Part shown: positions 9,301 through 22,575 of the stretch, in pieces
How the letters are laid out: every line of letters starts with the position of its first letter
How positions within the stretch are numbered: position 1 is the stretch's first letter
Assembly: GCA_963662265.2 (NCBI GenBank)
Contig: CAXXHA010000036.1
Coordinates: 14,247-38,246, forward strand
Length of the DNA: 24,000 nt
Reading direction: 5' to 3'
Source: Spirochaetia bacterium
GTDB lineage: Bacteria > Spirochaetota > Spirochaetia > CADAEX01
Made by a program: the position numbers and the translations under genes
Notes under the pieces: generated by a model
What the model was told of the DNA's origin: nothing
The model's input: the letters and a program-made list of their open reading frames with translations, nothing else
Database searches by the model: none

Positions 9301-9820
9301 GCTTCTTTCCTATGCTCTCTATCCGAATGTGTATCTTGATTATGATAAACACAGGACACAGTATTCAGATACTTCTGTTATTCCTACACCTACATACTTT
9401 TACGGTCTTGAACCGGGAGATGAGGTTTCTGTTGATATAGATACCGGAAAGACTCTTATTATCAAGCTTGTTGCTGTGGGAAGTGTTCACCATGACGGAA
9501 CACGGCATCTCTACTTCGAACTCAATGGTCTTTCAAGGCAGGTTACTGTAAGGGACAATACTGTTGAAGGTGATTTTGCAGTAAGGGAAAAAGCTGACAA
9601 GTTTAACAAACACCATGTAGGGGCACCAATGCCGGGCAAGGTATTTAAAGTGCTTGTCAAACCGGGCGATGATGTTGATTCAGGCGATGTGCTTGTTGTA
9701 ACAGAAGCAATGAAGATGGAAACAAATATCAAGGCTTCGATTGCCGGAAAGGTTAAGGAAGTTCTGTTTGATATTGGAGACCAGGTGGAAAAAGATGACC
9801 TCCTTTTGGAGCTTGAATAG
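6374..9820 (+). CDS. pyc: Pyruvate carboxylase, single-chain (biotin carboxylase + carboxyltransferase + biotinyl domain)
   Basis: 1148 aa. The N-terminal biotin carboxylase/ATP-grasp has ANRGEIAIR, GGGGRGMR and EMNPRLQVEHTVTE. The central carboxyltransferase has TTMRDAHQSLLATR and HLHTHDTSS. The C-terminal biotinyl domain has EAMKMET. SD AGGAG at 6362-6366 with a 7-nt spacer. Confidence 0.95.
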   Translation: MAIRKINKIMSANRGEIAIRTFRACMELGIKTVAIYSKEDRLSLYRTKADEAYRVGKGKSPIDAYLGIDEIIDLAKRKGVDAIHPGYGFLSENPEFSEKCEKEGIIFIGPTAVQQRTLGDKVSARAAAIAAGVPVVPGTDDPVKSEEEAFKFAKEAGYPIIIKAAAGGGGRGMRVANNHKELVEGLHSAASEAKAAFGDDTVFLEKYLKNPKHIEIQIIGDTHGNIVHFFERDCSIQRRHQKVVEFAPSLAISDELRQELCDNAIKIAKQVNYRNAGTVEFLVDQNGGYYFIEMNPRLQVEHTVTELITGRDLVQTQIRVAEGYKLSDPEINIPDQKSIKKSGYAIQCRITTEDPQNNFAPDFGTLKAYRSPAGFGVRLDAGNAFTGARITSSYDSLLVKLSGWGLSFEHAAMVMKRSLVEFRIRGVKTNIPFLQNVVSHPVFLAGQCDTSFIGDNPELMEFRENKDRATKILDYIGDRVINGTEGIEKPRGSLIFPEADVPEIRLSAERKEGTRDIFKKLGPEKFSDWILDQKKLLVTDTTMRDAHQSLLATRIRTYDILQIAEATSHLASDMFSFEMWGGATFDVSMRFLKECPWQRLHKLRENIPNVLFQMLLRASNAVGYTNYPDNVVQEFVREAADSGIDLFRIFDSLNWTKGMAVAMDAVRSNGKLCEASICYTGDITDPKRDKYPLEYYVNLGRELENMGANILAIKDMAGLLKPFAATKLIRALKDEVGIPVHLHTHDTSSNGGATLLRAAEAGVDIVDASLSSISGLTAQPNLNALNAALEGTDRDPHLDSVGIQKLANYWETVRSYYKPFETDLKSGTAEVYYHEIPGGQYSNYKPRVAGVGLLDKWEECKKMYHDVNEAFGDIIKVTPSSKIVADLAIFLVQNEVAIEDLIEKAPDLAFPQSVVDFFKGMIGQPYLGFPAELQKAILKGEEAITCRPGELLEPFDFEKERKDLEEKLGHEVDDKELLSYALYPNVYLDYDKHRTQYSDTSVIPTPTYFYGLEPGDEVSVDIDTGKTLIIKLVAVGSVHHDGTRHLYFELNGLSRQVTVRDNTVEGDFAVREKADKFNKHHVGAPMPGKVFKVLVKPGDDVDSGDVLVVTEAMKMETNIKASIAGKVKEVLFDIGDQVEKDDLLLELE

Positions 9821-9847
9821 GCTTTTCTGAATATTTTCAATTTTGCT

Positions 9848-9894
9848 GGCAGAACAGACAGTGTGGGGATAATGTCTGTTCTGCCTCTTTTTTT
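9848..9894 (+). terminator. Rho-independent terminator of pyc
   Basis: Perfect 13-bp stem: GGCAGAACAGACA (9848-9860) pairs with TGTCTGTTCTGCC (9873-9885). The loop is 12 nt, followed by TC and a T7 run (9888-9894). It sits between the convergent pyc and hybrid-kinase genes. On the minus strand the hairpin is followed by AGCAAAATTG, so it is at best a weak terminator in that direction. Confidence 0.85.
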
Positions 9895-9962
9895 ATCAAG
9901 GCGTATTCGCAGAAAATCAGCCAGCCTTGCTTTGAGTCTTAGCTGTATCAGATGCTTAATAT

Positions 9963-12680
9963 TCAGACTCTTGCTTCCAGGGTATTTTCAATTTTTTCGA
10001 GCAGAATTTCGGCATCTTTATACCTGTAGTTTTTTATCATCCTGAACAGGGTTAGTGTATTTTTCCTGGTAGAGTCAGGAAGAATAAAATTCTCGATTTC
10101 TTCCATAATTTCCATACAGCATTTTGGATTATGTTTTTTCACCTTCTGTTTCAGCAGCTCCAGCTGTTTTATCAGCTCTTCAGTTCTTATCTCTGATTTT
10201 CCGTTCTGTTCTTTTTTATTCTGTCCATTCAATATTTCAAAACCTGCTGAAATTGAGTGTATGAGACTCCTGAGTTCTTTGTTGAAATCAATAAACAGCT
10301 GACATTCGGTTTCAGATCCTTTTACCTTTAACTCGCTGTTAAGGAGTTCCGCTTTTTTCATCAGTTCGCAGGCTCCGAGATTTCCTGATGCTCCTTTAAT
10401 TGTGTGAACTGTTCTTGTAACTGCATCCCAGTCATTCCGGATCATTAAATCTGTAATATCATCATCTGCTGTTTTGAAATCTTCATAAAATTTGAGAACA
10501 AGATTTTTAAACAGCTTTTTATTGTTTCCTACCCGTTTCAATCCCTCTTCACAGCTGATTCCGTCTATTTCCGGAATATCACATTCAAACAAACTTTCAT
10601 CTTTAGTATTTGCATTTGTTTCTCTTTCGGCAGGAGCAATCCATTTTACAAGTACGTTCCACAGCTCTCCCGGGTTAAAAGGTTTTGTGACATAGTCATT
10701 CATCCCAATATCAAGGACTTTTTCCTTTACTCCTACCATGGCATCAGCTGTCATAGCTATAATCGGAATATCCTGAAACCGGCTGTCTTTTCTTATCTCT
10801 TTAGTGGCACAGTACCCATCCATTTCAGGCATCTGAAGATCCATCAATACACAGTCATGACTGGTGGATATTTTTGACAGTGCGTCAATCCCGTTCTTTG
10901 CTATATCAACAAAAAACCCTTCATGTTCAAGAAATTCACCTGCAACCTGCTGATTTATTTCATTATCCTCAACAAGAAGTATTTTTGCCCCGATTATCCT
11001 GTTGAAATCTTCCGGTTTTTCTTCGGCATTCTTTCTGATCTTCCCGGCTTTCTGTTGTGACAGTTTTCCGAATACAGATATTATTGTATCCAGCAGCATG
11101 GAAGGATTGACCGGTTTTATAAGGAAGCCGTCCAGGTTATCCCTGTCTGCTTGGCTGATAATATCTTCTCTTCCAATGCTTGTTATCATTATGATTTTAG
11201 GCTGATGTATATTTTCAAGCTTTCTGATTTTTCTAATCAATTCAAAACCATCCATTTCCGGCATCTTGTAGTCAATAAGAGCAAGGTCGTAATTTTTATC
11301 TCCCGAAGCCTGGTTCTGGATAAAATTACGTAAAGCAAGATTTCCATCAGGAAGCGCGGTTGCATCAAAGTTGAAATCATTTAAATAGGAGAGCAGGACT
11401 TCCCTTGCTGTTTCATTATCATCAACAACCATGACTTTTAATCCTGTTAATTCTTCTGCCGCTGTTTTTTTCTTTTCCTCATTCCCTTTCTCCAGTTCAG
11501 CTGTAAAGTAAAAACAGCTTCCTCTGCCGAACCTGCTTTCAACACCTATTTCACCGCCCATTAATTCAGACAGTTTTTTACTGATTGCGAGTCCGAGACC
11601 TGTTCCTCCGTATTTACGTGTTGTAGATGTATCAGCCTGGGAAAATGATTTGAACAGCTTCGCCTTCTGATCATCTGTTAGACCAATGCCTGTATCGGAA
11701 ACTTCAAATCTGATAATGACAGAATTGTCTTTTATTTCCTGGAGACTGACAGTGACGACTATTTCCCCTTCAGAGGTGAATTTAATTGCATTATTTGTCA
11801 GGTTCAGAAGTATCTGCCCGAGCCGGAGTGGGTCGCCTACCAGGTTGTTCGGAATATTGAGGTCCTGGCTGAAAATCAGTTCAAGCTCCTTGTTATTGAC
11901 TTTCTCTCCGATAATGCTTGCCAGGTTATCAAGCACTTCATTAAGCAGGAATCCTGTTTTTTCGATATCCATTTTGCCAGCTTCAATTTTTGAGAAATCA
12001 AGTATATCGTTGATAATTCCGAGCAGGTTGTTGGATGACCGGCTGATTTTATACACATAGTCCTGCTGTCTTTCTGTTAAATCTGTTTTGGTAAGCAGGT
12101 TGCTGAGTCCTATTATTGCATTCATCGGGGTTCTTATTTCATGGCTCATATTTGCCAGAAAGTCGCCTTTTGCTTTTGTTGCTGATTCAGCCTCCTGTTT
12201 TGCCGCAGTAAGCTCATCCATCATTGTCTGAAGTTCAGTGTTTTTCATTTTAATATTATGAAAAAGCGATTCTCTGGTAGGCTGAATAATAAGTTCCCTG
12301 CACTGCTGAAACAAATCTTCTGATAATGTGTTTTTATCCAGTGGTATTTTCAGAAAAACACTTATTGAATCTTTTCTGTTGTCTGATTTATTTATTATGC
12401 AGTTATTAAAAAAGCTTTTCAGTTCAGTTTCTGAAATATCGGAATTGAATGGTGTAATATCAAGTATGAGTTTTTCAGGTTTTTCATTGTTGACACTTAT
12501 AACCAGTTCTGAACATATGATGTTGTTTCCATCCAGGCATACCAGCTCAGAGAGTATTGTTGCGTTTCGGGTTGATTTAATTTCAGAAAAACCCAGAAGC
12601 AGAGATAATTGAAATATCTTTTTCCTGAACATTATCAGGTTAAGATATGTTTCTTCAGTTATTGCCCCTAAATTTATCAT
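9963..12680 (-). CDS. Soluble hybrid sensor histidine kinase (unassigned N-domain, coiled coil, HisKA, HATPase, REC, REC, HPt)
   Basis: 905 aa with no obvious TM segment.
- H-box: [11 protein letters not shown] (His180)
- N/G boxes: [30 protein letters not shown]
- REC1: VVDDNE...[11 protein letters not shown]...LIKP
- REC2: LVEDNE...[11 protein letters not shown]...AMTA...VTKP
- HPt: [12 protein letters not shown]
The ATG overlaps the upstream stop (ATGA at 12677-12680). Confidence 0.9.
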
Positions 12681-13261
12681 TTTACGTTCCTTATAATTAT
12701 ACAGGAAGCATCATCATTTTTACGGAAATTCTTGAACAGCTTTCCTGCAATATCTTCTGATGAGCCTGAAAGCAATCCGGGGAAGTTATCAAGCGGAAGA
12801 TTATCCTTTATACCGTCAGAGCAGAGGATAAGGATATCACCTCTTAAAAGCCTGTCATTTATCATACACGGGTTCGGCATGGAATAACCCAGTACCCCGT
12901 TCCTGGAGATTAAGGATCTCTTTTCAATTCCGTAAATTACCGCGCTTATATTGCCTATTCCGGAAAAAAGAATAGAGTTGTCTTCAGAGCTGATGCAGCA
13001 GGCAGCAGCTACGGCGCCCCTTGTCCCTTTTAGAAATTCATCAAGCCTTGTAATTATTTTTACAGGATCCGGCTCCAGTTTATCCTGCAAAAATATTTCT
13101 ATTTCCTCGGCAAGACCGGCTGCTTCATCCCCATGTCCGAGAACATCAATCAGGACAGCATAGAGATAATCCTCTTTTTCCTGAATTATGGCAGTATCTC
13201 CGCACCCTTTTTCACCGTAAATCGCATCTTTATATATTTTAATATCAAGCAGATTTTCCAC
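12677..13261 (-). CDS. rsbX: Small PP2C/SpoIIE-type phosphatase, RsbX-like
   Basis: 194 aa. PP2C-type motifs: [26 protein letters not shown] and NDDAS. Size and position (directly after the RsbT-like kinase) match RsbX. The GTG start at 13259-13261 abuts the TAG of the upstream gene. GGAGA lies 6 nt upstream. Confidence 0.7.
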
Positions 13262-13687
13262 CTATATTCTCCATTTTGTCACTGTAATCCTGGTTCCCCG
13301 GCCTGTCCCTGATTCTATTTCCAGGGAATCCATTATTTCCTTAACACTGGAAAGTCCGAGTCCAAGGCTGTCCCCTGTTGAATATTCCGGAGCAACAGCT
13401 GCACTGATATCATCAATACCGGGCCCGTCGTCCTGTACAACGATCAGTATGCCGGTTCTTCTGCCGTCTGTTATCTTATGGTAAAATACATGTCCTGAGT
13501 CTGCATAGCGGACAATATTTGTAGTCAGTTCAGATACAGCTGTTGCTATAAGTGACTGCTCGTTTCTGTCGAAATTAAGTTTTTCACAGAATTCCCTTGT
13601 CATTATTACTGAATAGGCAATATCTGCAGAATGCTCAATTTTGATGCTTAACTGTGATTCACTTTTTTTATATTTCAATTCACACAT
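13262..13687 (-). CDS. rsbT: GHKL-type Ser/Thr protein kinase, RsbT-like
   Basis: The ORF track extends to 13756. ATG 13687 gives 141 aa (MCELKYKK...) and overlaps the upstream STAS gene stop by 8 nt (ATGTGTGA). Motifs: N-box AVSELTTNIVRYA, G1 VVQDDGPGI, G2 SLGLGLSSVKE. There is no HisKA domain, i.e. the RsbT/RsbW/SpoIIAB class. Confidence 0.75.
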   Translation of the reverse strand: MCELKYKKSESQLSIKIEHSADIAYSVIMTREFCEKLNFDRNEQSLIATAVSELTTNIVRYADSGHVFYHKITDGRRTGILIVVQDDGPGIDDISAAVAPEYSTGDSLGLGLSSVKEIMDSLEIESGTGRGTRITVTKWRI

Positions 13688-14078
13688 CTGTATATTCCAA
13701 TCCGATTTTTTCCTGGTCAGGGGAGGTGTTTTCCAGCATTTTGATCCCCTCTTCAAGGTCTGATGCTATATTGAGAGAATCAAAATCAACGCTGAGATCA
13801 ACAAGTGTGGATGCAACTCCCGGCTTGAAACCGGTGAAAACAGTCTGTCCTCCCATCAGGCAGATCATTTTCCCTGTCTGGACAAGGGCTGTAAATGTTT
13901 TTCTGTCCATGACATTTATAGCAGAAACATCAACTAGGACTTTTTTCACTGAATGTCTGTTTATTCTTCCAAGTATGTTTTTCTGAAACAGGAGAAGTGT
14001 ATCCAGACTGAAATCTTCCGGAAGCGGAATTATGAGGCAGTCACTTATAATATGGGCATTTAAACTGTTTTCTGCCAT
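13680..14078 (-). CDS. rsbS: Single-domain STAS protein, RsbS-like
   Basis: 132 aa, STAS fold only: LIIPLPEDF...VLVDVSAINVMD...LMGGQTVFTGFKPGVASTL. It lies between the PAS-STAS gene and the RsbT-like kinase, with a 1-nt gap to the upstream stop. The residue after the conserved Asp is Arg rather than Ser/Thr (see findings). Confidence 0.75.
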   Translation of the reverse strand: MAENSLNAHIISDCLIIPLPEDFSLDTLLLFQKNILGRINRHSVKKVLVDVSAINVMDRKTFTALVQTGKMICLMGGQTVFTGFKPGVASTLVDLSVDFDSLNIASDLEEGIKMLENTSPDQEKIGLEYTDV

Positions 14079-14079
14079 T

Positions 14080-14880
14080 TTAAATGCTCTTTTTATTATC
14101 GCTTACTTCAAGGTCGAGTATGCTGAAGGCGCCTCCCAGCGCTTCCTGTAAATTTGAATGAGTCAGAATTGTCCCAAGTTCTACACCAAGGGTGACAAGA
14201 GTCTGTGCAACAGATGGCGATATGCCGGAAATGATGCATTTGCACCCCATAAGGCGGGTTGCTTTTGCAATTTTTATAAGATGGTTTGCTACAGCTGTAT
14301 CAACAGTAGCAACCCCCTGAATATCCAGGATAATTATCTTGGAGGAAGTTTCTTTTAATTTGTTCAGCATAGTATCCATCATCTGCTGGGCCCTGTATGA
14401 ATCCACAACACCTACTATAGGCAGAACGAGGATCCTGTCCCACAGCTGAATAACCGGTGTTGATATTTCGAGAATTGTTCTGCTCTGCTCTTTGAGTTTT
14501 TCCTCTTTTTTTACAACTTCCGAGATATCAATTATATATTCGAGGCCTCCGATTATTTCACCGTCTTTATTCCGAAGGACATCAGCCGTATACTCGATAG
14601 GTACAGGTTTATTGTCAAGGTAAACAATGTTTCTCACAGTTGCAACAGATTCACCATTCATGACATGTTTCATCCTGCAGTTGCCGTTTTTACAGTGATC
14701 CGAATCAAACAGGGTGAAGCAGAAATTTGAATCAATATCCTCCCATTTTGAATTTGTCATTTCCAGACCAGCCTTGTTCATGAATATGATTTTAAAATCT
14801 TTATCAATTGCCATTACAGGAGTGGGGAGCTGGTTGAGGATATCTTCACTGAATGAATTGTTTTTTTCACTTTTATTCAT
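14080..14880 (-). CDS. rsbR: PAS-STAS sensor protein, RsbR-like (stressosome input subunit)
   Basis: 266 aa. The N-terminal PAS-like domain (LPTPVMAIDKDFKIIFMNKAG...DGEIIGGLEYIIDISE) carries a Cys/His cluster. A helical linker follows. The C-terminal STAS domain (ILVLPIVGVVD...ILDIQGVATVDTAVANH...ISGISPSVAQTLVTLG) has both RsbR-type Thr motifs (VDT and AQT). Confidence 0.75.
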   Translation of the reverse strand: MNKSEKNNSFSEDILNQLPTPVMAIDKDFKIIFMNKAGLEMTNSKWEDIDSNFCFTLFDSDHCKNGNCRMKHVMNGESVATVRNIVYLDNKPVPIEYTADVLRNKDGEIIGGLEYIIDISEVVKKEEKLKEQSRTILEISTPVIQLWDRILVLPIVGVVDSYRAQQMMDTMLNKLKETSSKIIILDIQGVATVDTAVANHLIKIAKATRLMGCKCIISGISPSVAQTLVTLGVELGTILTHSNLQEALGGAFSILDLEVSDNKKSI

Positions 14881-15314
14881 ATGGAATTCCGCCTTTTTTA
14901 AAATATTTACTAATTAATTATAGTAAAATAAAATTCAATTCTCCAATTATTCATTAAAAAAACAGGAAATATTATTATTAAAAAAACGGAATAGATAAAA
15001 AATATGTTAATACGCAGACAGGCTGAATCTGTTTCAATAGTTAATGCCGGTTTTAATTAAAAAAAGTAAAATGACATTGTAATCAGCTTTCCAATAAATT
15101 ATATTATTATAATGAATAAAATTATATTTTAAACTAAGGAAGTATTATTCAGAAATAGTGATAATAAAAAGTTGTATAAGAAATTGTTTTTATTTCTAAT
15201 TTATAGCGTAAAGAACCCCTCATCAAATGATTCCTCCATGCAGAATTGCCAGAAGAAATAAATAATCAATTCCTCTGATAATACAAAACAGTTATTTAAT
15301 GAAGGAATTCCGTT

Positions 15315-16424
15315 ATGAAAAATATTTTAAGCAGATCAACACTGCTGCTGGTTGATGATACTCCTCACAATATTGATTTCCTTATCAATACAATTGGAAA
15401 TACTTACAATCTTATAATTGCCACTAATGGTGAAGATGCTCTTGCAGCTGCTGATGAGTCAGTTCCCGATCTTATTCTGCTTGATATTCTGATGCCGGGA
15501 ATGGACGGGTTTGAGGTTTGTACCAGGCTGAAACAGAATAAAAAGACCTGTGAAATACCGGTGATTTTTTTATCTGCGGTTACTGAAGTAGACCAGAAAA
15601 CAAGGGGATTTTCGCTTGGTGCTGCTGATTACATAACAAAGCCTTTTAATGTGCAGGAAGTTTCAGCACGTGTTGAAACTCACCTGGCTGCAAAATTTGC
15701 AAGGGACTGCCTGATGAATCAGAATAATATACTGGAAAATATAGTAAGGGAAAGAACCAGTGAGATCATGGCTACACAGGATATAACAATAAGAATGGCT
15801 GCATCCCTTGCAGAAACCAGGGATAATGATACAGGGAATCATATTATAAGAACACAGATGTATGTGAAGAAACTCGCGGAAAAACTTTCGATGGAGAGTA
15901 AATACCGCAGTCAGCTGGATGATAAAACTATCGATTTGCTTGTTAAATCATCCCCTCTCCATGATATCGGCAAGATTGGTGTAACAGACAGGGTTCTTCT
16001 TAAACCGGGCAGGCTTGATGATAATGAATTTACAGAGATGAAAATGCATACTGTATTTGGCTATAATGCCCTGCTTAAAGCGGAAAAGGAGATGAAGAGT
16101 GATTCTTTTTTGACAATATCAAGAGAAATTGCATATACACATCATGAAAAATGGAATGGAACAGGTTACCCGCAGGGGTTGAAAGGGGAAGATATTCCTC
16201 TTTCAGGAAGAATCATGGCTGTTGCTGATGTTTATGATGCGCTTGTTACAAGAAGAATATATAAGCCTCCTGTAAGCCATGATGAGGCTGTTTCAATCAT
16301 GTGCGAGGGGAGGGGAACTCATTTTGATCCGGTTCTCACTGATTGTTTCCTGCAGATCAACGGGGAATTCAGAACGATAGCTGTAGCTCTTTCTGAAGCG
16401 GATGATATAAAAAATGACTTGTAA
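15315..16424 (+). CDS. Response regulator with HD-GYP domain (RpfG-type putative c-di-GMP phosphodiesterase), copy 1
   Basis: 369 aa. REC: LLVDDTPHNID...LLDILMPGMDG...ITKP. HD-GYP: TGNHIIRT, PLHDIGKIGV, HHEKWNGTGYPQG, ADVYDAL. SD AAGGA lies 8 nt upstream of the ATG. Confidence 0.9.
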   Translation: MKNILSRSTLLLVDDTPHNIDFLINTIGNTYNLIIATNGEDALAAADESVPDLILLDILMPGMDGFEVCTRLKQNKKTCEIPVIFLSAVTEVDQKTRGFSLGAADYITKPFNVQEVSARVETHLAAKFARDCLMNQNNILENIVRERTSEIMATQDITIRMAASLAETRDNDTGNHIIRTQMYVKKLAEKLSMESKYRSQLDDKTIDLLVKSSPLHDIGKIGVTDRVLLKPGRLDDNEFTEMKMHTVFGYNALLKAEKEMKSDSFLTISREIAYTHHEKWNGTGYPQGLKGEDIPLSGRIMAVADVYDALVTRRIYKPPVSHDEAVSIMCEGRGTHFDPVLTDCFLQINGEFRTIAVALSEADDIKNDL

Positions 16425-16485
16425 ACAGTAATAAATAATAATTTACGGGTGAAAATAATAAGTAGCCTTATCAGGGGAGAAAATT

Positions 16486-17601
16486 ATGTCAGATTTTATC
16501 AGTGATGCTGTTGTACTGATTGTTGATGATACTCCGCAGAATATTGATATATTACTTGAATCTCTGGGAGATTTGTATTCTATCCAGGTTGCAGTCAACG
16601 GTAAAGAGGCTCTTGAAGCAGTAGCGGAAGATCCTCCCGATTTAATACTTCTGGATGTTCTGATGCCGGAAATTAACGGTTATGAAGTATGCCGTAGGCT
16701 GAAGAATGATTTCCCGGCTGCTGATATCCCGGTGATTTTTCTCACAGCTCTTTCTGAAATGGATCAGAAAACAAAGGGGTTTGAACTGGGCGCTGTTGAT
16801 TTCATTACAAAACCATTTGATATCCGTGAAGTTAAAGCCCGAGTAAAGACACATCTTGTAAATAAATTCGCAGGTGATTTCCTTAAAAATCAGAACAGTT
16901 TTCTTGAAACAATGGTGAAAAAAAGAACCTTTCAGATAGAAAATATCCAGAATGTCACAATACGGATGGCTGCTTCTCTGGCGGAAACACGCGACAATGA
17001 AACAGGTGATCATATCAAGCGTACTCAAAAGTATGTTGCCGCATTTTTAAATATGCTGTCAGAAGAAAACTTATACCCGGAATATATAAATGAAGAAAGC
17101 ATTGATCTGATGATCAAGTCGGCCCCTCTTCATGATATAGGGAAAATCGGGGTTGCTGACAAAATACTTCTGAAACCGGGAAAACTCACCAATGAAGAGT
17201 TTGATGAGATGAAAAAACATACAATTTACGGGAATGAATCTCTGCTCAGGGCTGAAGAGGAGATTAAAGATGAATCATTTCTCCGCTTTGCCAGGGAAAT
17301 AGCTTATACACATCATGAGAAGTGGGACGGGTCGGGATACCCTGAAGGGGTATCTGGTGACGAAATACCTCTTTCGGGACGAATAATGGCAATTGCAGAT
17401 GTTTATGATGCTTTGATTTCAAAACGGGTGTATAAACCGCCTTTTACACACAGCAAAGCTGTTTCTATTATAAATGAAGGGAAGGGGCATCATTTTGATC
17501 CCGTTCTTATTGAATGTTTTGGCAAAATTGAAGAATCATTCAGGCAGATTGCTCTTGAGTATGTAGAGAGTGATGATGAACGGGAAGCATTATTAAGATA
17601 A
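16486..17601 (+). CDS. Response regulator with HD-GYP domain, copy 2 (tandem paralogue)
   Basis: 371 aa, colinear with copy 1 and roughly 55-65% identical by eye. REC: IVDDTPQNID...LLDVLMPEINGYEV...ITKP. HD-GYP: PLHDIGKIGV, HHEKWDGSGYPEG, ADVYDAL. SD GGGGAG has a 6-nt spacer. Confidence 0.9.
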   Translation: MSDFISDAVVLIVDDTPQNIDILLESLGDLYSIQVAVNGKEALEAVAEDPPDLILLDVLMPEINGYEVCRRLKNDFPAADIPVIFLTALSEMDQKTKGFELGAVDFITKPFDIREVKARVKTHLVNKFAGDFLKNQNSFLETMVKKRTFQIENIQNVTIRMAASLAETRDNETGDHIKRTQKYVAAFLNMLSEENLYPEYINEESIDLMIKSAPLHDIGKIGVADKILLKPGKLTNEEFDEMKKHTIYGNESLLRAEEEIKDESFLRFAREIAYTHHEKWDGSGYPEGVSGDEIPLSGRIMAIADVYDALISKRVYKPPFTHSKAVSIINEGKGHHFDPVLIECFGKIEESFRQIALEYVESDDEREALLR

Positions 17602-17618
17602 AAACACAAAGGTAAAAT

Positions 17619-20600
17619 ATGTATTTATATGATATGAAAAAAACAACTCTTCATGTGATAATGCTTTTTGTCATATTTGGTACAGGAACTGTTTTTCCGC
17701 AGGAAAAGTCCATTTCCAGCTGCAGCGGAGGAATGATTCAGGCAGGGGAGGAAAGGCAATGGGTAAAAGCAGGATTTTCCGGAAATGCTGCAGATGAAGT
17801 ACCTGATTATGAGAACAGATCAATACAGGAAAAATGGTTATCAGTATTTGAATTAAAAGATATTTATGCGGGGGAAAGCAGTGGTAATAAACCTGTTATA
17901 TTCAGGGTGTTTATCCTGGTAACACTGTTTCTTCTGGCAATATTCCTGTTCCAGGGATTTCTTAAAAAGAAAAGCAGCGAAAGTGTTAAATTCGATATAA
18001 GGCGGATGAGAATTACTACTCTTGTGATACTGGCTTTCTGTATGACATGTATTCTTACAATAACAATATATTCAGTCAGAAATATCAGAAATAATGCTGT
18101 AGAAAAAGTGCATGATAATCTTGATGTTGTTCTGTCTACTGTAACTGAAGTTCTTACAAGCTGGATTGACAAAAATCTTACCCAGGTCCGGATGGAAACC
18201 CAGAAAGAAGATTTTGTCTCTCGTGTAAGTAATATAACTGCTGTCCCGTCTGACAGGGAAACATTACTGAAAAGTGAAGAACTCAGGAATTTCCGGGATT
18301 ATTTTTCACGGGAAAATCCGTATTCCTTTTCCGAAGGTTTTTTTATAATATCGGATGACGGGATTAATATTGCGTCACACGATGATGAAAGCATAGGCAG
18401 GGCCAATTTTGTATTTAAAAACCGTCCTGAACTTCTGGAACTCGCATTTCTCGGAAAAAGCATGTTTATTCCCCCTGTTCTCAGAGAAGCAGATGGCTGG
18501 TCTCCCGGTTCATGCAGTCAATCCTGCCTGTTCTATGCTGTTCCTGTTTTAAATTCGGAAAACAATGTTATTGCTGTAATGATACAAAGAGAAGATCCTG
18601 AAAAGGATTTCGGAAGATTCTGCAGGATGGGAAGAATTGGAGAAAGCGGTGAAACCTATGCATTTGACAGAAATGGTTTTATGCTTACAAACAGCCGTTT
18701 TGATGATCAGCTTCTTTCAATAGGTTTGCTGAAAGAGGGATCAGTCAGCGCTCTGAATATACAGCTCAGGGATCCTGGTGTTAATCTGCTTGAGGGGGAA
18801 AACAGCCCTTTAAACAGAGATGATCAGCCGTTTACCTTAATGTTCAGACATGCTTCAAGCAGCGAATTCGGTTATAACATCGAGGGGTACCGCGATTACC
18901 GGGGAGTTGATGTTTTCGGTGCCTGGCGATGGTTTGATGAATATAATTTCGGTATTGCATCGGAAATAGATATTACAGATGCTTTGAGTTCCTATTCCAC
19001 GATACAGACTGCAATTTATATTATCATTGCAATAGCCTTTTTCCTTGCTTCGGGAACAACACTTTTCAGTATTCATACAGGCGAAAGGGCGAATAAGTCG
19101 CTCTCAGAGGCAAATGAAAATCTTGAAAAGAGAGTTGCTATGCGGACTGCAGAACTTTCAGAAGCAAGAAACAAGACAGAGGCAATTCTTGAGGCTTCAA
19201 CAAACGGAATAATCACTATTGACGAAAAAGGGATTATTGAAACTTTCAATCCGGCAGCAGAACATATTTTCGGCTACAGTAAAGATGAAGTTATAGGGCA
19301 GAATGTGAAAATCCTGATGCCTTTGGAGTATTCCGAAAAACATGACGGGTATCTCGGTAATTATATTGATACAGGAATAAAGATGGCTATAGGGCGAAGG
19401 TTTGAAAAAGAGGGACTGCGGAAATCCGGACAGCTGATACCTCTTGAAATAGGCATTAATGAAGTACATCTTAAAGACAGGCGTCTTTTTACTGCAATTA
19501 TGAATGATATTTCCGAGAGGAAAGCTTCTGAAGAAGCTCTTATAACGGCTAAAAGAAACAATGAATTTGCAGCAGAGACAGCAGGTCTTGCCTACTGGGA
19601 ACAGGATTTAACAGAAAAAACATTTACTGTTAATGACAGTTTTTTCAAGCTTGCTGATACAAGTTATGTTAGGGAAGGCTGTTATGTTTATCCTGTCAAT
19701 GAATTCCTTGACCAGTTTGTATATCATGGAGACCTTGACAAGGTTGTTGAAAAATTTTTAGAAGCTGAAAAAACAACATCAGACATTGCAGATCAGTTTG
19801 AATACCGGCTGGTCCTCCGGAGCGGAGGATTCAGGTACGGGTATATGAAATATTTTGTGATTCATGACAGCCATGGAAATGCTGTTAAAATTACAGGAAT
19901 ACATCTTGATATTACAGAAAGAAAAAAAATAGAAATGGAGCTTGCAGAGGCAAAAGAAGCAGCTGAAGCAGCGGCAAAGATAAAGTCTGATTTTCTCGCA
20001 AATATGAGCCATGAAATAAGGACTCCTATGAATGCTATCATCGGGCTGTCCCATCTTATAAGCAAAACAAGGCTTACGAAAAAGCAGGAAGATTATATCC
20101 ATAAAATATTCGGCTCTGCCCACAATCTGCTTGGCATTATAAATGATATTCTGGATTTTTCAAAAATAGAAGCTGGAAAGCTTGCTATGGAATCAGTTGA
20201 TTTTGATCTTAATGAAGTTTTTGATAATCTTGGCAACATGATAGCGGGAAAGGCATATGATAAGAAACTGGAGCTTGTATTTCATGTAAATACAGATGTT
20301 CCTGTGAAACTTGTCGGTGATCCTCTCCGCCTGGGGCAGGTGCTGCTGAACCTTGCAAATAATGCTGTCAAATTCACCGAAGCAGGTGAAATTGCTGTAT
20401 CTGCTGAACTTGTGAATCTTGAAAACAATGAAGCTGAAATAAAATTCATAGTCCGTGATACAGGGATCGGACTCACAGAAGATCAGATGAACACCCTTTT
20501 TCAGGCTTTTTCCCAGGCAGATACTTCAACAACCAGAAAATACGGAGGGACCGGACTGGGGCTTTCGATCAGTAAGAAGCTTTCTGAAATGATGGGCGGC

Positions 20601-22163
20601 CGTATCTGGGTTGAGAGTATATTCGGCGAAGGTTCAACATTTTATTTTACCGGAAAATATAAAGTCAGGCATGTTGAAACACATAAGATTTTTCCGGCAG
20701 GACTCCGCGGTCTTGATGTTCTGATTGCTGATGATAATTCCACCAGCCAGAAAGTTCTACTTGAATATTTGAAGGATTTTGAATTGAATCCTGTTGCGGT
20801 GGATAATGGCACAGAAGCTGTTCAGATAATCAGGAAGAGACTGGAAGATGGAGTTAAGGGGTTTGATCTTGTGCTTCTGGATTTCAGCATGCCTGGTCTT
20901 AATGGATTTCAGACAGCTGAAAAAATAAATGAAATACTGGGTAAGAATGAAAGGCCGAGATATATACTTGTAACAGGATTTGGCCGTGATGAAGTTATCA
21001 ATGGTATTGAAAGATACGGGTTTGAAGGATTCCTTCTGAAACCGGTCAATCAGTCGCTCCTGTTCAATACAATTATGCAGGCTTTCGGCCGTGAAAGAAA
21101 AGATACAGGAAAAACAATAACAGAAAAATTTCCGAACGGCTTTGACAGCATCAGGGGCGCTGAAATACTTCTTGTAGAGGATAATGAAATCAATCAGCAG
21201 GTAGCAAGGGAGGTGCTTGAAAGGGAAGGTTTCTCTGTTGATGTTGCTGATAATGGGGAGATTTCTCTTGAGATGCTGTCTGAAAAAAAATATGACCTGG
21301 TATTGATGGATCTGCAGATGCCTGTAATGGGGGGAGTCGAGGCAACAGGAGAGATCAGGAAGAATGATGAATTTAAAGAACTCCCTGTTATTGCAATGAC
21401 TGCAGATGCAATGTCAGGGGTCAGGGAAATGGTCCTTGAAAAAGGGATGAATGACTATATTACAAAACCTATTGAGCCGTATTTTCTATGGAAAACAATG
21501 GTTAAATGGATTGTGCCGGGAGAAGGGAAATTTTCTGATATCAACAGAATGGAGAGACCTTCTGAGGAAGCAGGGGAAATTCCTGAAATTGATGGGCTTG
21601 ATATCAATTCCGGATTAAACCGGATGTCCGGTAATTTCGAGCTTTATAAAAATCTTCTGATAAAGTTTTTCAGGGAATATACAGATTTAAGCATGATAAT
21701 TTCTGAAGATGCGGAAAACGGCCGAACAGATGATGCTGTAAGGACTGCCCATTCTGTTAAGGGGGTGTCTGGTAATCTTGGCGCGACAAAGATCCAGGTT
21801 AAAATGGCTGATATCGAGAACAAGCTTAAAAACAGTAAAGATTACAGAGACGATCTTTCTGAGGCTGAATCAATGATTCGTAATCTCGCTGAAAAGGCTG
21901 AAAAAGCAGGGCTTCTTGAAAACCAGGAGGAGCCTTCAGATAAAAGTATGGAGATTTCCAGGGAAGAGCTTACTGCCAGGCTGACAATAGCTGTCGACTC
22001 TCTTTCAAGGAGAAAGCCCAGGACTGCTATTACTGTGCTTGAAGAGCTGGGAAAGTGTGATTTTGACAAAGAAACCGGGGAAAAACTATCTGAAGCAAGG
22101 ACTCTTCTTGCAAGATACAGGATGAAAGAGGCTTCAGAGCTGCTCAGGGGTATAATAGGCTAG
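17619..22163 (+). CDS. Membrane hybrid sensor histidine kinase (Cache-like periplasmic domain, 2 PAS, HisKA, HATPase, REC, REC, HPt)
   Basis: 1514 aa with four hydrophobic segments (about aa 11-27, 93-115, 132-153 and the AIYIIIAIAFFLASGTTLFSI helix).
- The ~310-aa segment between TM3 and TM4 is Cache-like: GETYAFDRNGFMLTNSRF, YRDYRGVDVFGAW
- PAS: ILEASTNGIITIDEKGIIETFNPAAEHIFGYSKDEVIGQNVKILMP
- H-box: [11 protein letters not shown]
- HATPase: DTGIGL, GGTGLGLSISK
- REC1: LLDFSMPGLNG
- REC2: LMDLQMPVMGG
- HPt: HSVKGVSGNLGA. Confidence 0.9.
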   Translation: MYLYDMKKTTLHVIMLFVIFGTGTVFPQEKSISSCSGGMIQAGEERQWVKAGFSGNAADEVPDYENRSIQEKWLSVFELKDIYAGESSGNKPVIFRVFILVTLFLLAIFLFQGFLKKKSSESVKFDIRRMRITTLVILAFCMTCILTITIYSVRNIRNNAVEKVHDNLDVVLSTVTEVLTSWIDKNLTQVRMETQKEDFVSRVSNITAVPSDRETLLKSEELRNFRDYFSRENPYSFSEGFFIISDDGINIASHDDESIGRANFVFKNRPELLELAFLGKSMFIPPVLREADGWSPGSCSQSCLFYAVPVLNSENNVIAVMIQREDPEKDFGRFCRMGRIGESGETYAFDRNGFMLTNSRFDDQLLSIGLLKEGSVSALNIQLRDPGVNLLEGENSPLNRDDQPFTLMFRHASSSEFGYNIEGYRDYRGVDVFGAWRWFDEYNFGIASEIDITDALSSYSTIQTAIYIIIAIAFFLASGTTLFSIHTGERANKSLSEANENLEKRVAMRTAELSEARNKTEAILEASTNGIITIDEKGIIETFNPAAEHIFGYSKDEVIGQNVKILMPLEYSEKHDGYLGNYIDTGIKMAIGRRFEKEGLRKSGQLIPLEIGINEVHLKDRRLFTAIMNDISERKASEEALITAKRNNEFAAETAGLAYWEQDLTEKTFTVNDSFFKLADTSYVREGCYVYPVNEFLDQFVYHGDLDKVVEKFLEAEKTTSDIADQFEYRLVLRSGGFRYGYMKYFVIHDSHGNAVKITGIHLDITERKKIEMELAEAKEAAEAAAKIKSDFLANMSHEIRTPMNAIIGLSHLISKTRLTKKQEDYIHKIFGSAHNLLGIINDILDFSKIEAGKLAMESVDFDLNEVFDNLGNMIAGKAYDKKLELVFHVNTDVPVKLVGDPLRLGQVLLNLANNAVKFTEAGEIAVSAELVNLENNEAEIKFIVRDTGIGLTEDQMNTLFQAFSQADTSTTRKYGGTGLGLSISKKLSEMMGGRIWVESIFGEGSTFYFTGKYKVRHVETHKIFPAGLRGLDVLIADDNSTSQKVLLEYLKDFELNPVAVDNGTEAVQIIRKRLEDGVKGFDLVLLDFSMPGLNGFQTAEKINEILGKNERPRYILVTGFGRDEVINGIERYGFEGFLLKPVNQSLLFNTIMQAFGRERKDTGKTITEKFPNGFDSIRGAEILLVEDNEINQQVAREVLEREGFSVDVADNGEISLEMLSEKKYDLVLMDLQMPVMGGVEATGEIRKNDEFKELPVIAMTADAMSGVREMVLEKGMNDYITKPIEPYFLWKTMVKWIVPGEGKFSDINRMERPSEEAGEIPEIDGLDINSGLNRMSGNFELYKNLLIKFFREYTDLSMIISEDAENGRTDDAVRTAHSVKGVSGNLGATKIQVKMADIENKLKNSKDYRDDLSEAESMIRNLAEKAEKAGLLENQEEPSDKSMEISREELTARLTIAVDSLSRRKPRTAITVLEELGKCDFDKETGEKLSEARTLLARYRMKEASELLRGIIG

Positions 22164-22224
22164 AGAAACTGGTATTAAAATACAATAAAAATCGGGGAAG
22201 CAGTTGATCCAGAAAGGATGAATT

Positions 22225-22575
22225 ATGATTTTAATAGTAGATGATACACCTTCTAATATTGATATTGTCATGGAAATAATAGGTGAAATTGATGATGTTG
22301 CTGTTGCTCTTGACGGAGAAGAAGCACTAGAAATTATCAAAGAGGATATTCCCGATATTGTTCTTCTTGATATTGTAATGCCTGGAATAGATGGTTTTGA
22401 AGTATGCAGAAGAATTAAGGGAAATCCTGATACGGAAAAAATAGCTGTAATATTTCTTTCGGGAGATGGGGCTGAAGAGGAGAAGTCAAAAGCCGGAGAA
22501 ATTGGAGCCTCCGGTTTTCTTGAAAAGCCGATTGATCCTGAAAAACTGCTTGCAGCAGTAAAAGCTTTTATATGA
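22225..22575 (+). CDS. Stand-alone receiver (single-domain response regulator)
   Basis: 116 aa, REC only: LIVDDTPSNID...LLDIVMPGIDGFEV...VIFLSG...LEKP. SD AAAGGA has a 6-nt spacer. It lies 61 nt downstream of the large kinase. Confidence 0.85.
   Translation: MILIVDDTPSNIDIVMEIIGEIDDVAVALDGEEALEIIKEDIPDIVLLDIVMPGIDGFEVCRRIKGNPDTEKIAVIFLSGDGAEEEKSKAGEIGASGFLEKPIDPEKLLAAVKAFI

Follow-up and report, generated by a model that had tools for sequence, protein, structure and literature searches.

The stretch of DNA considered here is a 24-kb window (24,000 nucleotides, positions 14,247 to 38,246 of contig CAXXHA010000036.1, assembly GCA_963662265.2) from a Spirochaetia bacterium, which has been annotated by Pfam, NCBIfam, Rfam, PDB sequence matches, and consensus scans. 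Its minus strand carries five tightly joined open reading frames (ORFs), four of which encode proteins that resemble RsbR, RsbS, RsbT, and RsbX of the stressosome, and the fifth a hybrid histidine kinase. The block probably represents a stressosome pathway of the Vibrio type with a phosphorelay output in place of a sigma factor, in which the signal would run from the stressosome to the kinase and from there to an HD-GYP regulator. The first 135 residues of the kinase form a domain, for which we use the term psiT, that bears on how the stressosome and the kinase are coupled. The five genes are as follows (lengths in amino acids, aa).

14880..14080, minus strand: RsbR-like protein, 266 aa, PAS_4/PAS_9 and STAS domains (Pfam, STAS E-value 1e-16)
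14078..13680, minus strand: RsbS-like protein, 132 aa, STAS domain (Pfam, 3e-9)
13687..13262, minus strand: RsbT-like protein, 141 aa, HATPase_c / HATPase_c_2 (Pfam, 2e-12 / 2e-11)
13261..12677, minus strand: RsbX-like protein, 194 aa, GTG start, SpoIIE PP2C domain (Pfam, 2e-9)
12680..9963, minus strand: hybrid kinase, 905 aa, soluble, with HisKA, HATPase_c, two Response_reg domains, and Hpt (Pfam)

The coordinates, sizes, and four junctions given for these ORFs in the original prediction, which a model had made from the sequence alone, match the sequence exactly, and Pfam agrees with the domains predicted for the five proteins. In the kinase, the Pfam E-values are 6e-23, 2e-28, 2e-47, and 2e-7 for HisKA, HATPase_c, the two Response_reg domains, and Hpt, respectively. 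A gap of 1 nucleotide (nt) separates rsbR from rsbS (TAA-a-ATG), rsbS and rsbT overlap by 8 nt (ATGTGTGA), rsbT and rsbX are joined with no gap (TAG followed by GTG), and rsbX overlaps the kinase gene by 4 nt (ATGA). No minus-strand terminator-like site has been found inside the block by consensus scan. Also, the 24 kb contain no gene for a sigma factor and no rsbU, rsbV, or rsbW, as the original prediction had stated. The gene order had been likened to that of the Bacillus stressosome, and this comparison holds for the proteins but not for the contiguous R-S-T-X arrangement, which defines the "Vibrio-type" module; the rsbX gene of B. subtilis lies apart from rsbT (PMC9237108).

The hybrid kinase can be divided into three parts.

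12276..12680, minus strand: psiT (kinase aa 1-135), predicted RsbT-like pseudokinase domain
12174..12275, minus strand: helical linker (kinase aa 136-169) from psiT to DHp, with the motif PSRxELLxDLxxKNxEL conserved in the alignment of kinase N-termini (A1, described below)
9963..12173, minus strand: kinase core, with HisKA (H180, starting at aa 170), HATPase_c (aa 282-397), REC1, REC2, and Hpt

In the core, REC1 spans ~aa 415-533 (D470), REC2 ~aa 566-680 (D614), and Hpt aa 733-809 (H759). H180, the receiver aspartates, and H759 are intact, and in NCBIfam the top matches, BarA and TorS, fall short of their cutoffs. Residues 1 to ~150 of the kinase have no credible Pfam, NCBIfam, or PDB sequence match. 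A word-indexed homologue search with the kinase N-terminus returned nothing and a search with the A1 profile returned only 3 fragments, while an exhaustive phmmer search of 1.8 billion representatives with the N-terminus returned only 5 matches. Because psiT evolves fast, the family has been recovered through the N-termini of full-length kinase orthologues, 21 of which make up A1. The consensus of this alignment is MIELGxL...ARxKIxxLxxxLGFxxIxxxRLxTxFSELxR...FFD...LPdP...PSRxELLxDLxxKNxEL, and the near-invariant positions are M1, L4, G5, L71, F91, and L139.

The AlphaFold2 (AF2) model of psiT obtained from A1 has a pLDDT of 89.7 and a pTM of 0.81. The modeled fold follows the order beta1-alpha1-alpha2-beta2-beta3-alpha3-beta4-beta5, after which two helices lead toward DHp, with the linker helix from aa 136-150 running on to the end of the model. 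In a Foldseek comparison with the PDB, the only coherent set of matches at a probability of 0.99-1.00 is formed by SpoIIAB (1l0o, 1th8, 1tid, and 1til) and RsbW (6m37), with TM of 0.42-0.55 and weak Foldseek E-values of ~1e-2. SycH, the rank-1 match, has been discounted for its poor superposition (TM 0.27, rmsd 14.6).

Profile comparison by hhalign relates psiT to the RsbT profile at 94.8% (E 5.5e-8) over 104 columns, covering positions 20-142 of 146. The alignment has a gap at the ATP lid, where ~20 lid residues are missing from psiT. As negative controls, psiT against RsbS, RsbX, and RsbR gives 0.2% or less and psiT against the kinase's own catalytic domain 0.8%, while the positive control, RsbT against the kinase catalytic domain, gives 98%. 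The psiT-RsbT score of 50.4 compares with 11.8 ± 1.7 for a column-shuffled null, 10.1 for the reversed profile, and 20.2 ± 3.1 (maximum 28.5) for a block-shuffled null. By these profiles, psiT is a homologue of RsbT that has become fused to a histidine kinase. The possibility that it arose by degeneration from the catalytic domain of the same kinase has been rejected on the basis of the 0.8% obtained for that domain as against 94.8% for RsbT.

The catalytic motifs of RsbT are not retained. The N box of psiT reads SELVCLDG in place of SELTTNIVRYA, with loss of the Asn, and the G1 (DxGxG) and G2 motifs and the ATP lid are absent. Because the N-box Asn, G1/G2, and the ATP lid are lost, psiT is predicted to be a pseudokinase. 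It shares with the GHKL kinases SpoIIAB, RsbW, and RsbT (HATPase_c_2) the fold order, the homology to the RsbT profile, and intact intermediates in the Rhodobacterales, but differs from them in its fusion to a histidine kinase, in lying below Pfam detection, and in the lost ATP motifs. RsbU_N, the other candidate for a docking domain on the kinase, has been rejected since there is no Pfam match and the AF2 model is an alpha/beta fold with five strands. RsbU_N gives no match at E ≤ 0.01 in the kinase or at E ≤ 1 in the 21 kinase N-termini. We have found no paper that describes a psiT-type domain on stressosome-linked kinases, and the domain appears to be undescribed.

At least 20 other genomes, belonging to five phyla, contain the same five-gene block. 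It has been found with our own hidden Markov models (HMMs), built from the window proteins and their orthologues, in 17 further loci, and also on two Vibrio replicons and a Bacteroidota plasmid, a degree of conservation far beyond chance. A scan of species-representative genomes with the RsbR alignment gave 14 loci. Six kinases were taken solely by full-length similarity: P0002, P0011, P0048 (Desulfobacula phenolica), P0102 (the Firmicute Marinisporobacter), P0114 (Oleidesulfovibrio), and P0109. They come from Spirochaetota, Desulfobacterota, and one Firmicute. In five of the six, genes for PAS-STAS, STAS, HATPase_c_2, and SpoIIE proteins lie directly upstream, with unrelated flanks; in the sixth, P0109, the contig end truncates the gene at the rsbR position, which scores as RsbR in the HMM annotation.

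A survey of gene neighborhoods had been proposed in the original prediction, and the kinase stands beside the module in every related genome where the sequence continues. The gene next to rsbX encodes a kinase with psiT in 18 of the 18 loci that have sequence past rsbX. Within these loci, every one of the 18 cassette-linked kinases carries the domain, and the 6 other hybrid kinases all lack it. A contiguous rsbR-S-T-X set with a kinase gene right behind it is also present in L021, L022, and L027. No RsbV-RsbW-sigma gene set is present in the flanks of the 20 related loci annotated.

The arrangement is less novel than the original prediction had implied, as the architecture corresponds to a described Vibrio-type locus. 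What is new is above all the psiT domain, together with the PAS/Cys sensor and the lost RsbS phospho-acceptor described below. The published locus consists of RSTX, the sensor kinase D1, and D2, a predicted cyclic di-GMP (c-di-GMP) phosphodiesterase, and is co-transcribed (PMC9237108). In V. vulnificus, deletion of D1 resembles deletion of RSTX, with effects on motility and effects linked to c-di-GMP (PMC10014275). D1 has no RsbU_N, and a bacterial two-hybrid assay of VvRsbT with VvD1, the sole published test, was negative (PMC9237108).

For comparison, L021 from Vibrio sp. THAF191d, a locus closely orthologous to that of V. vulnificus, has been used in its stead. Its RsbR is a protoglobin-STAS protein that matches V. 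vulnificus RsbR (7o0i_B) over the full length with an E-value of 3e-172. The window and the V. vulnificus locus share the contiguous R-S-T-X genes, the following HisKA-HATPase-REC-REC-Hpt hybrid kinase, the REC-HD-GYP partner, and the lack of RsbU_N. All six proteins of L021 are homologous to those of the window, with identities of 55% for the RsbR STAS, 43% for RsbT, 32% for RsbX, 43% for the kinase core, and 51% for HD-GYP. The L021 kinase has the D1 design, with an unassigned N-terminus ahead of PAS-HisKA-HATPase-REC-REC-Hpt and then a REC-HD-GYP gene. By hhalign, this N-terminus matches psiT at 92.9% (E 3.8e-7, 126 columns), so that the D1-like kinase also carries psiT. The V. aquimaris kinase after RSTX carries it as well (98.2%, E 4e-14).

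The window differs from the Vibrio locus in several respects. The sensor of the window RsbR is a Cys/His PAS domain and not a haem protoglobin as in L021, the RsbS acceptor is replaced by Arg, and the HD-GYP genes are duplicated and now sit, together with a dCache hybrid kinase, in a divergent operon. In addition, the kinases of L004, L005, L007, and L021 (~1060-1120 aa) have a PAS domain between psiT and DHp (aa 165-278 in L021), as published for V. vulnificus D1, where a PAS is inserted ahead of DHp, whereas the window kinase has none at this position.

Further cassette types have been reached by an RsbR search of a plasmid collection. In Chondrinema (Bacteroidota), a plain kinase carries psiT (94.5%). 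In Salipiger (L025, 11176-12312) and Phaeobacter (L026, 11170-12321), the output of the cassette is an HWE/HisKA_2 kinase whose N-terminus is an intact RsbT-like domain, recognized by Pfam as HATPase_c_2, with the N, G1, and G2 motifs kept and a match of 99% to the RsbT profile. The Salipiger domain, at 99.2% to the RsbT profile and 86.8% to the psiT profile, bridges the RsbT and psiT families at the profile level, and the Rhodobacterales kinases look like an evolutionary intermediate on the way to the degenerate psiT. An N-terminal RsbT-like domain is also fused to RsbX in Salipiger (L025, 10169-11176), Phaeobacter (L026, 10152-11165), and Chondrinema (L027, 10166-11167). These domains have apparently intact kinase motifs and score at least 99% against RsbT by hhalign, with Pfam matches to HATPase_c_2 and SpoIIE.

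On a Flammeovirga plasmid (L023, 8509-10735, and L024, 1-1968, across the record origin), the genes after a cassette of protoglobin-RsbR, S, T, and X encode a SpoIIE-family phosphatase of 540 aa and an anti-sigma-factor antagonist, a partner-switch output with no psiT kinase. This globin-type locus is the only annotated locus with an output made of a PP2C and an antagonist.

The two STAS proteins of the window belong, as judged by sequence similarity, to the RsbR/RsbS type and not to the RsbV/SpoIIAA type. The RsbR-like protein has an N-terminal PAS sensor (aa 12-123), a linker helix, and a C-terminal STAS domain (aa 147-247), and is 57-82% identical to its orthologues in L001-L003. Among PDB sequences, the STAS half gives an E-value of 1e-45 with V. 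vulnificus RsbR (7o0i_B) and of ~1e-26 with Listeria RsbR. The RsbS-like protein is closest to the RsbS proteins from Listeria, B. subtilis, Moorella, and V. vulnificus (E 1e-14 to 6e-11), and SpoIIAA reaches only 0.02-0.7. The original prediction had set the affinity of the STAS proteins as a test of the stressosome assignment, and the outcome, 1e-45 for RsbR and 1e-14 to 6e-11 for RsbS as against 0.02 for SpoIIAA, places both with the stressosome proteins. The phospho-acceptor positions of the two proteins are as follows.

14296..14400, minus strand: RsbR positions S161 (VVDSYRAQ) and T195 (TVDTAVANH), equivalent to Listeria T175/T209 by alignment
13902..13904, minus strand: RsbS residue 59, an Arg at the position where other RsbS proteins canonically have the phospho-acceptor Ser (B. 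subtilis S59 / Listeria S56)

In alignments, S161 and T195 match the acceptor residues of Listeria and Vibrio RsbR, and both are invariant in all PAS-type cassettes. In RsbS, the acceptor segment reads VMDRKTF in the window, with a Thr at +2, as compared to FIDSFIA in Listeria. Of 19 orthologues, 12 have Ser/Thr in this column, whereas 4 have Arg, 2 have Gly, and 1 has Ala. The window RsbS is therefore best described, from its sequence, as a variant that is RsbS-like apart from the acceptor position. By their motifs, RsbT and RsbX are catalytically intact even where the RsbS acceptor is lost.

The RsbT-like protein has an intact N box (SELTTNIVRYA), G1 (DDGPGI), and G2 (SLGLGLS), and the three boxes are intact in RsbT of the window and 20 orthologues. 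Its best PDB match is SpoIIAB (3e-6), with no RsbT chain among the matches, and NCBIfam gives SpoIIAB at 65 bits and RsbW at 21 bits, both below cutoff. We use the label RsbT rather than RsbW because the gene always lies between rsbS and rsbX in the annotated loci. An alternative start for this ORF is the TTG at 13756; the ATG at 13687 agrees with the 141-aa orthologue in L001. In L016, from a SEEP-SRB2 metagenome genome, two tandem free-standing RsbT paralogues (9713-10620) give the order R-S-T-T-X, and both motif sets are intact; this contig ends 1.1 kb after rsbX. The RsbX-like protein has its best PDB matches in Moorella MtX (3zt9, E 1e-18) and B. subtilis RsbX (3w40, 1e-6), with the next match at 0.04. 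The metal-binding motifs CGDT, DVLGHG, SDG, and DDAS are present, and the protein is predicted to be a single-domain PP2C phosphatase of the RsbX/MtX type.

The probable output genes lie next to the cassette. They were missed in the original prediction and complete the pathway.

15315..16424, plus strand: REC and HD-GYP regulator 1, 369 aa, Response_reg, HD_5, and HD, with LHDIGK and GTGYP intact
16486..17601, plus strand: REC and HD-GYP regulator 2, 371 aa, Response_reg, HD_5, and HD, a tandem paralogue

The two REC-HD_5 genes are divergent from the cassette, 434 bp upstream of it, and both the HD and the GYP motifs are intact. Regulator 1 is a predicted c-di-GMP phosphodiesterase and likely the terminal acceptor of the relay. 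In 11 loci (L002, L003, L008, L009, L011-L013, L018, L019, L021, and L022) a REC-HD-GYP gene is directly downstream of the kinase, and in others it is nearby; in the window and in L001 it is divergent and upstream of the cassette. In the metagenome contig L020 (4907-7403), the kinase is separated from its two REC-HD-GYP genes by an AAA_14/DUF4143 gene and a PhdYeFM/PIN toxin-antitoxin pair.

The divergent operon of the window (15315-22575, plus strand) contains the two REC-HD-GYP genes, a 1514-aa membrane hybrid kinase of the dCache-PAS-PAS type, and a 116-aa REC-only protein. L001 shares this layout and has in addition an Hpt-only protein. The core of the 1514-aa kinase is ~47% identical to the core of the 905-aa kinase, and the two Hpt-bearing kinases may converge on the same HD-GYP regulators.

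Other known systems share parts of this arrangement. The stressosomes of Bacillus subtilis and Listeria monocytogenes, which signal through RsbU and RsbV/RsbW to sigma-B, have the same RsbR/RsbS STAS proteins, RsbT kinase, RsbX PP2C, and RsbR acceptors. The window differs from them in having no rsbU, rsbV, rsbW, or sigB, in the position of rsbX directly after rsbT, in its phosphorelay output, in the Arg at the Ser59 equivalent, and in a docking domain that is RsbT-like and not an RsbU_N four-helix bundle. In Moorella thermoacetica (MtR/MtS/MtT/MtX/MtG), the output protein has RsbU_N-GAF-GGDEF domains and is a diguanylate cyclase whose RsbU_N domain is bound by the RsbT homologue (Quin et al. 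2012, as cited in PMC4976288 and PMC12143880). Both systems tie a stressosome to c-di-GMP, the window RsbX is nearest to MtX, and the window RsbS resembles MtS (2vy9/3zxn, E ~2e-11). The route in the window, on the other hand, leads through a kinase to an HD-GYP phosphodiesterase, with an RsbT-like pseudokinase as the N-terminal domain. Finally, SypE of Vibrio fischeri is summarized as an RsbW-like kinase joined to REC and PP2C domains that acts on the STAS protein SypA (PMC12826045). It provides a precedent for the fusion of RsbT/RsbW-like domains with further signaling enzymes that target a STAS protein, and the RsbT-like-RsbX fusions of L025-L027 resemble it. SypE differs in its active kinase domain and in having neither a histidine kinase nor a link to an RsbR/RsbS core.

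Based on these observations, we propose that psiT is likely the coupling device between the stressosome and the kinase. RsbR, with its PAS and STAS domains, and RsbS, with its STAS domain, would build the stressosome core. RsbT, a GHKL Ser/Thr kinase with intact motifs, would write phosphates on the STAS proteins and the PP2C phosphatase RsbX would erase them. psiT would dock the kinase dimer onto the STAS domains of the core, in competition with RsbT or alongside it, and would read the phosphorylation or conformational state set by RsbT and RsbX. Binding or release would then be passed down the linker helix and switch autophosphorylation, and the phosphate would move from His180 to an Asp of REC, to His759 of Hpt, and to the Asp of a REC-HD-GYP regulator, resulting in a change in c-di-GMP hydrolysis. 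Here we infer both the direction of regulation and which HD-GYP regulator takes the phosphate.

The identity of the partner of psiT is the more tentative part of this proposal. We consider docking on the STAS core to have close to an even chance, by analogy with the family to which psiT belongs. STAS domains are the known partners of RsbT/RsbW/SpoIIAB-type domains, and pseudo-enzymes most often keep the binding partner of their ancestor; both argue for STAS as the partner of psiT. Two other observations point the same way. An RsbT-like domain is also fused to RsbX, whose substrate is phospho-STAS, and the two-hybrid assay of VvRsbT with VvD1 was negative (PMC9237108).

Several points weigh against the proposed scheme. 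The canonical switch, in which RsbS is phosphorylated and RsbT released, cannot work unchanged here as far as the sequence tells, since the acceptor Ser is Arg in the window and is absent in 7 of 19 orthologues, which makes the textbook RsbT-release step inapplicable in its usual form. In SpoIIAB-SpoIIAA complexes the ATP lid contributes to the surface that contacts STAS, and because psiT has lost this lid, canonical docking may be impaired. We infer the megadalton stressosome particle, which would be a pseudo-icosahedral RsbR/RsbS core sequestering RsbT, from the 55-65% identity of the STAS domains to a protein solved by cryo-EM and from their similarity to 7O0I and 6QCM chains. Also, the HD-GYP genes of the window may primarily serve the second hybrid kinase in the divergent operon.

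The main rival explanation holds that released RsbT is itself a direct ligand of the kinase, forming a pseudo-homodimer with psiT and/or clamping onto the helical linker. SpoIIAB and RsbW form homodimers, psiT is an RsbT homologue, and its N-terminal strand, MIELG, is near invariant, which fits an edge-strand or dimer interface. The conserved helical linker into DHp parallels the mechanism in which RsbT acts on RsbU_N and a coiled-coil linker, and the transfer of this mechanism to histidine kinases has been proposed (PMC12143880). The kinase would be switched by the same logic. This was also the reading of the original prediction, which had named the hybrid kinase as the most plausible target of RsbT and had called the step from RsbT to the kinase mechanistically unresolved. 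The latter is an accurate account of the literature (PMC9237108). Of the former, coupling to the kinase is supported by synteny and the shared D1 and RSTX phenotypes, but the two-hybrid result, a weak negative, speaks against a direct RsbT target (PMC9237108). RsbT-like domains are, moreover, also found on RsbX, which needs its STAS substrate and not RsbT, and dimerization of RsbT itself has no support in these data. We regard an RsbT ligand as unlikely, although it is the rival to be taken most seriously, and psiT suggests kinase docking on the STAS core at least as strongly as it suggests an RsbT target.

According to a second rival, RsbT phosphorylates a Ser/Thr of the kinase in a transient encounter that RsbX reverses, with psiT serving as a decoy or substrate-presentation domain. 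This was proposed by Heinz et al. for V. vulnificus after the negative two-hybrid assay (PMC9237108), and the strict conservation of the RsbT catalytic motifs in spite of RsbS acceptor loss means that some substrate is required. The invariant S161 and T195 of RsbR, however, suffice to explain the retention of both RsbT and RsbX, which makes phosphorylation of the kinase less likely. The known substrates of the family are STAS domains, and Pfam finds no STAS domain in the kinase. No conserved candidate Ser/Thr has been identified in psiT in A1. We consider this explanation improbable.

Least probable by far is the absence of any functional link, in which the genes would form a generic partner-switch or anti-sigma cassette with a target elsewhere, the kinase would be a mere neighbor, and psiT an unrelated sensor or dimerization domain: the view is limited to 24 kb, so that a sigma factor could be distal, and the best PDB match of RsbT is the anti-sigma factor SpoIIAB, but synteny is kept across five phyla with unrelated flanks, the rsbX stop and kinase start codons overlap, psiT occurs only on RSTX-adjacent kinases, the STAS proteins are of the RsbR/RsbS type, and D1 and RSTX of V. 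vulnificus are alike in mutant phenotypes and transcription kinetics (PMC10014275, PMC9237108). A generic RsbV/RsbW anti-sigma system has been rejected on the STAS affinities and the synteny.

The favored reading, in which psiT docks the kinase onto the STAS core, can be extended to a general role for psiT as a "stressosome reader". The kinase would occupy RsbT-type docking sites on the RsbR/RsbS core, and the stressosome would both scaffold and gate the phosphorelay, with a docking signal written by RsbT and erased by RsbX. Earlier stages of this development would be represented in Rhodobacterales and Bacteroidota by the intact RsbT-like domains that are joined to RsbX and to HWE kinases. We offer this extension as a possibility, somewhat more doubtful than not.

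The input of the system may lie in the PAS domain of RsbR, in which the following signature has been identified.

14677..14721, minus strand: C54 ... H62-C63 ... C68 in the RsbR PAS domain, candidate metal or Fe-S site

The pattern is C..(D/E)...HCxTxxCRM, and C54, H62, C63, and C68 are invariant in alignment A2 and in every intact PAS-type RsbR aligned, including the Firmicute L018 and the outlier L016. The PAS domain of OrpR from D. vulgaris holds a redox-sensitive [4Fe-4S] cluster with the ligands C52/C61/C65 (PMC8359166). The RsbR cysteines C54/C63/C68 lie at nearly the same PAS positions and with nearly the same spacing as C52/C61/C65 of OrpR. The D/E54 of OrpR has its counterpart in a D/E at +2 in most RsbR orthologues, and the hosts are mostly anaerobes. 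The comparison, made with OrpR by its described positions only, also shows differences: the RsbR spacing is off by one residue, the second Cys directly follows an invariant His, and the window RsbR has Thr at +2. Because the position and spacing of the cysteines are close to those of OrpR and most hosts are anaerobes, a redox or Fe-S input through the RsbR PAS may be considered a reasonable lead by analogy. A single-sequence structure model of RsbR was unusable (pLDDT 45.6). A YtvA-like LOV photoreceptor has been rejected: the match to NCBIfam YtvA_fam reaches 100 bits, below the cutoff of 250, mostly from the STAS half, and the position of the flavin-binding motif, which we take to be NCRFLQ in LOV domains and which was aligned by hand, is occupied by NFCFTLF.

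Upstream of rsbR, within the 434-bp divergent intergenic region, a consensus scan finds two promoter-like hexamer pairs.

15133..15106, minus strand: promoter-like pair TTTAAA-16-TATAAT, 10/12 matches, a consensus match only
14945..14917, minus strand: promoter-like pair TGGAGA-17-TATAAT, 10/12 matches, a consensus match only

At the other end of the block, the kinase gene is convergent with a pyruvate carboxylase gene, with 142 nt between the stop codons (9821-9962), and the consensus scan finds no terminator-like hairpin in this gap. The flank on this side encodes an M20 peptidase, an SH3 protein, an ABC-F ATPase, a rhomboid protein, and the pyruvate carboxylase. The other flank holds the two REC-HD-GYP regulators, the 1514-aa dCache-PAS hybrid kinase, the REC-only protein, and a phosphonate-type binding protein. 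No Rfam RNA family is found in the window. An exact-sequence look-up of the window kinase gave no record; the P0001 kinase, on a 1.14-Mb ENA metagenome contig, is 99% identical to it and has the same neighbors. The nearest named relatives in the RsbR-alignment locus scan are Oceanispirochaeta and Spirochaetaceae genomes from metagenomes, by which the host is Spirochaetota-like.

Stressosome signaling to outputs other than RsbU is an acknowledged gap. For V. vulnificus, the authors could only speculate on how coupling occurs in the absence of RsbU_N or of an interaction between RsbT and D1 (PMC9237108). psiT is common to the stressosome-linked kinases of Spirochaetota, Desulfobacterota, Firmicutes, Bacteroidota, and Vibrio, including a locus closely related to that of V. 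vulnificus, and it makes the coupling question, whether the STAS core or RsbT is bound, directly testable in a genetically tractable organism. If psiT is irrelevant to coupling, the locus is a further member of a described family. If psiT is a stressosome reader, it would explain how signals are transmitted by stressosomes without RsbU_N outputs, including that of V. vulnificus. The domain also provides a sequence marker by which stressosome outputs can be recognized in genomes. That the RsbS phospho-serine is often lost is relevant to the debate over phosphorylation-independent stressosome signaling, which is the topic of one report by its title (PMC3944199). Finally, the Cys/His PAS domain may define a class of redox or Fe-S stressosome inputs in anaerobes, parallel to the haem O2 sensor of Vibrio.

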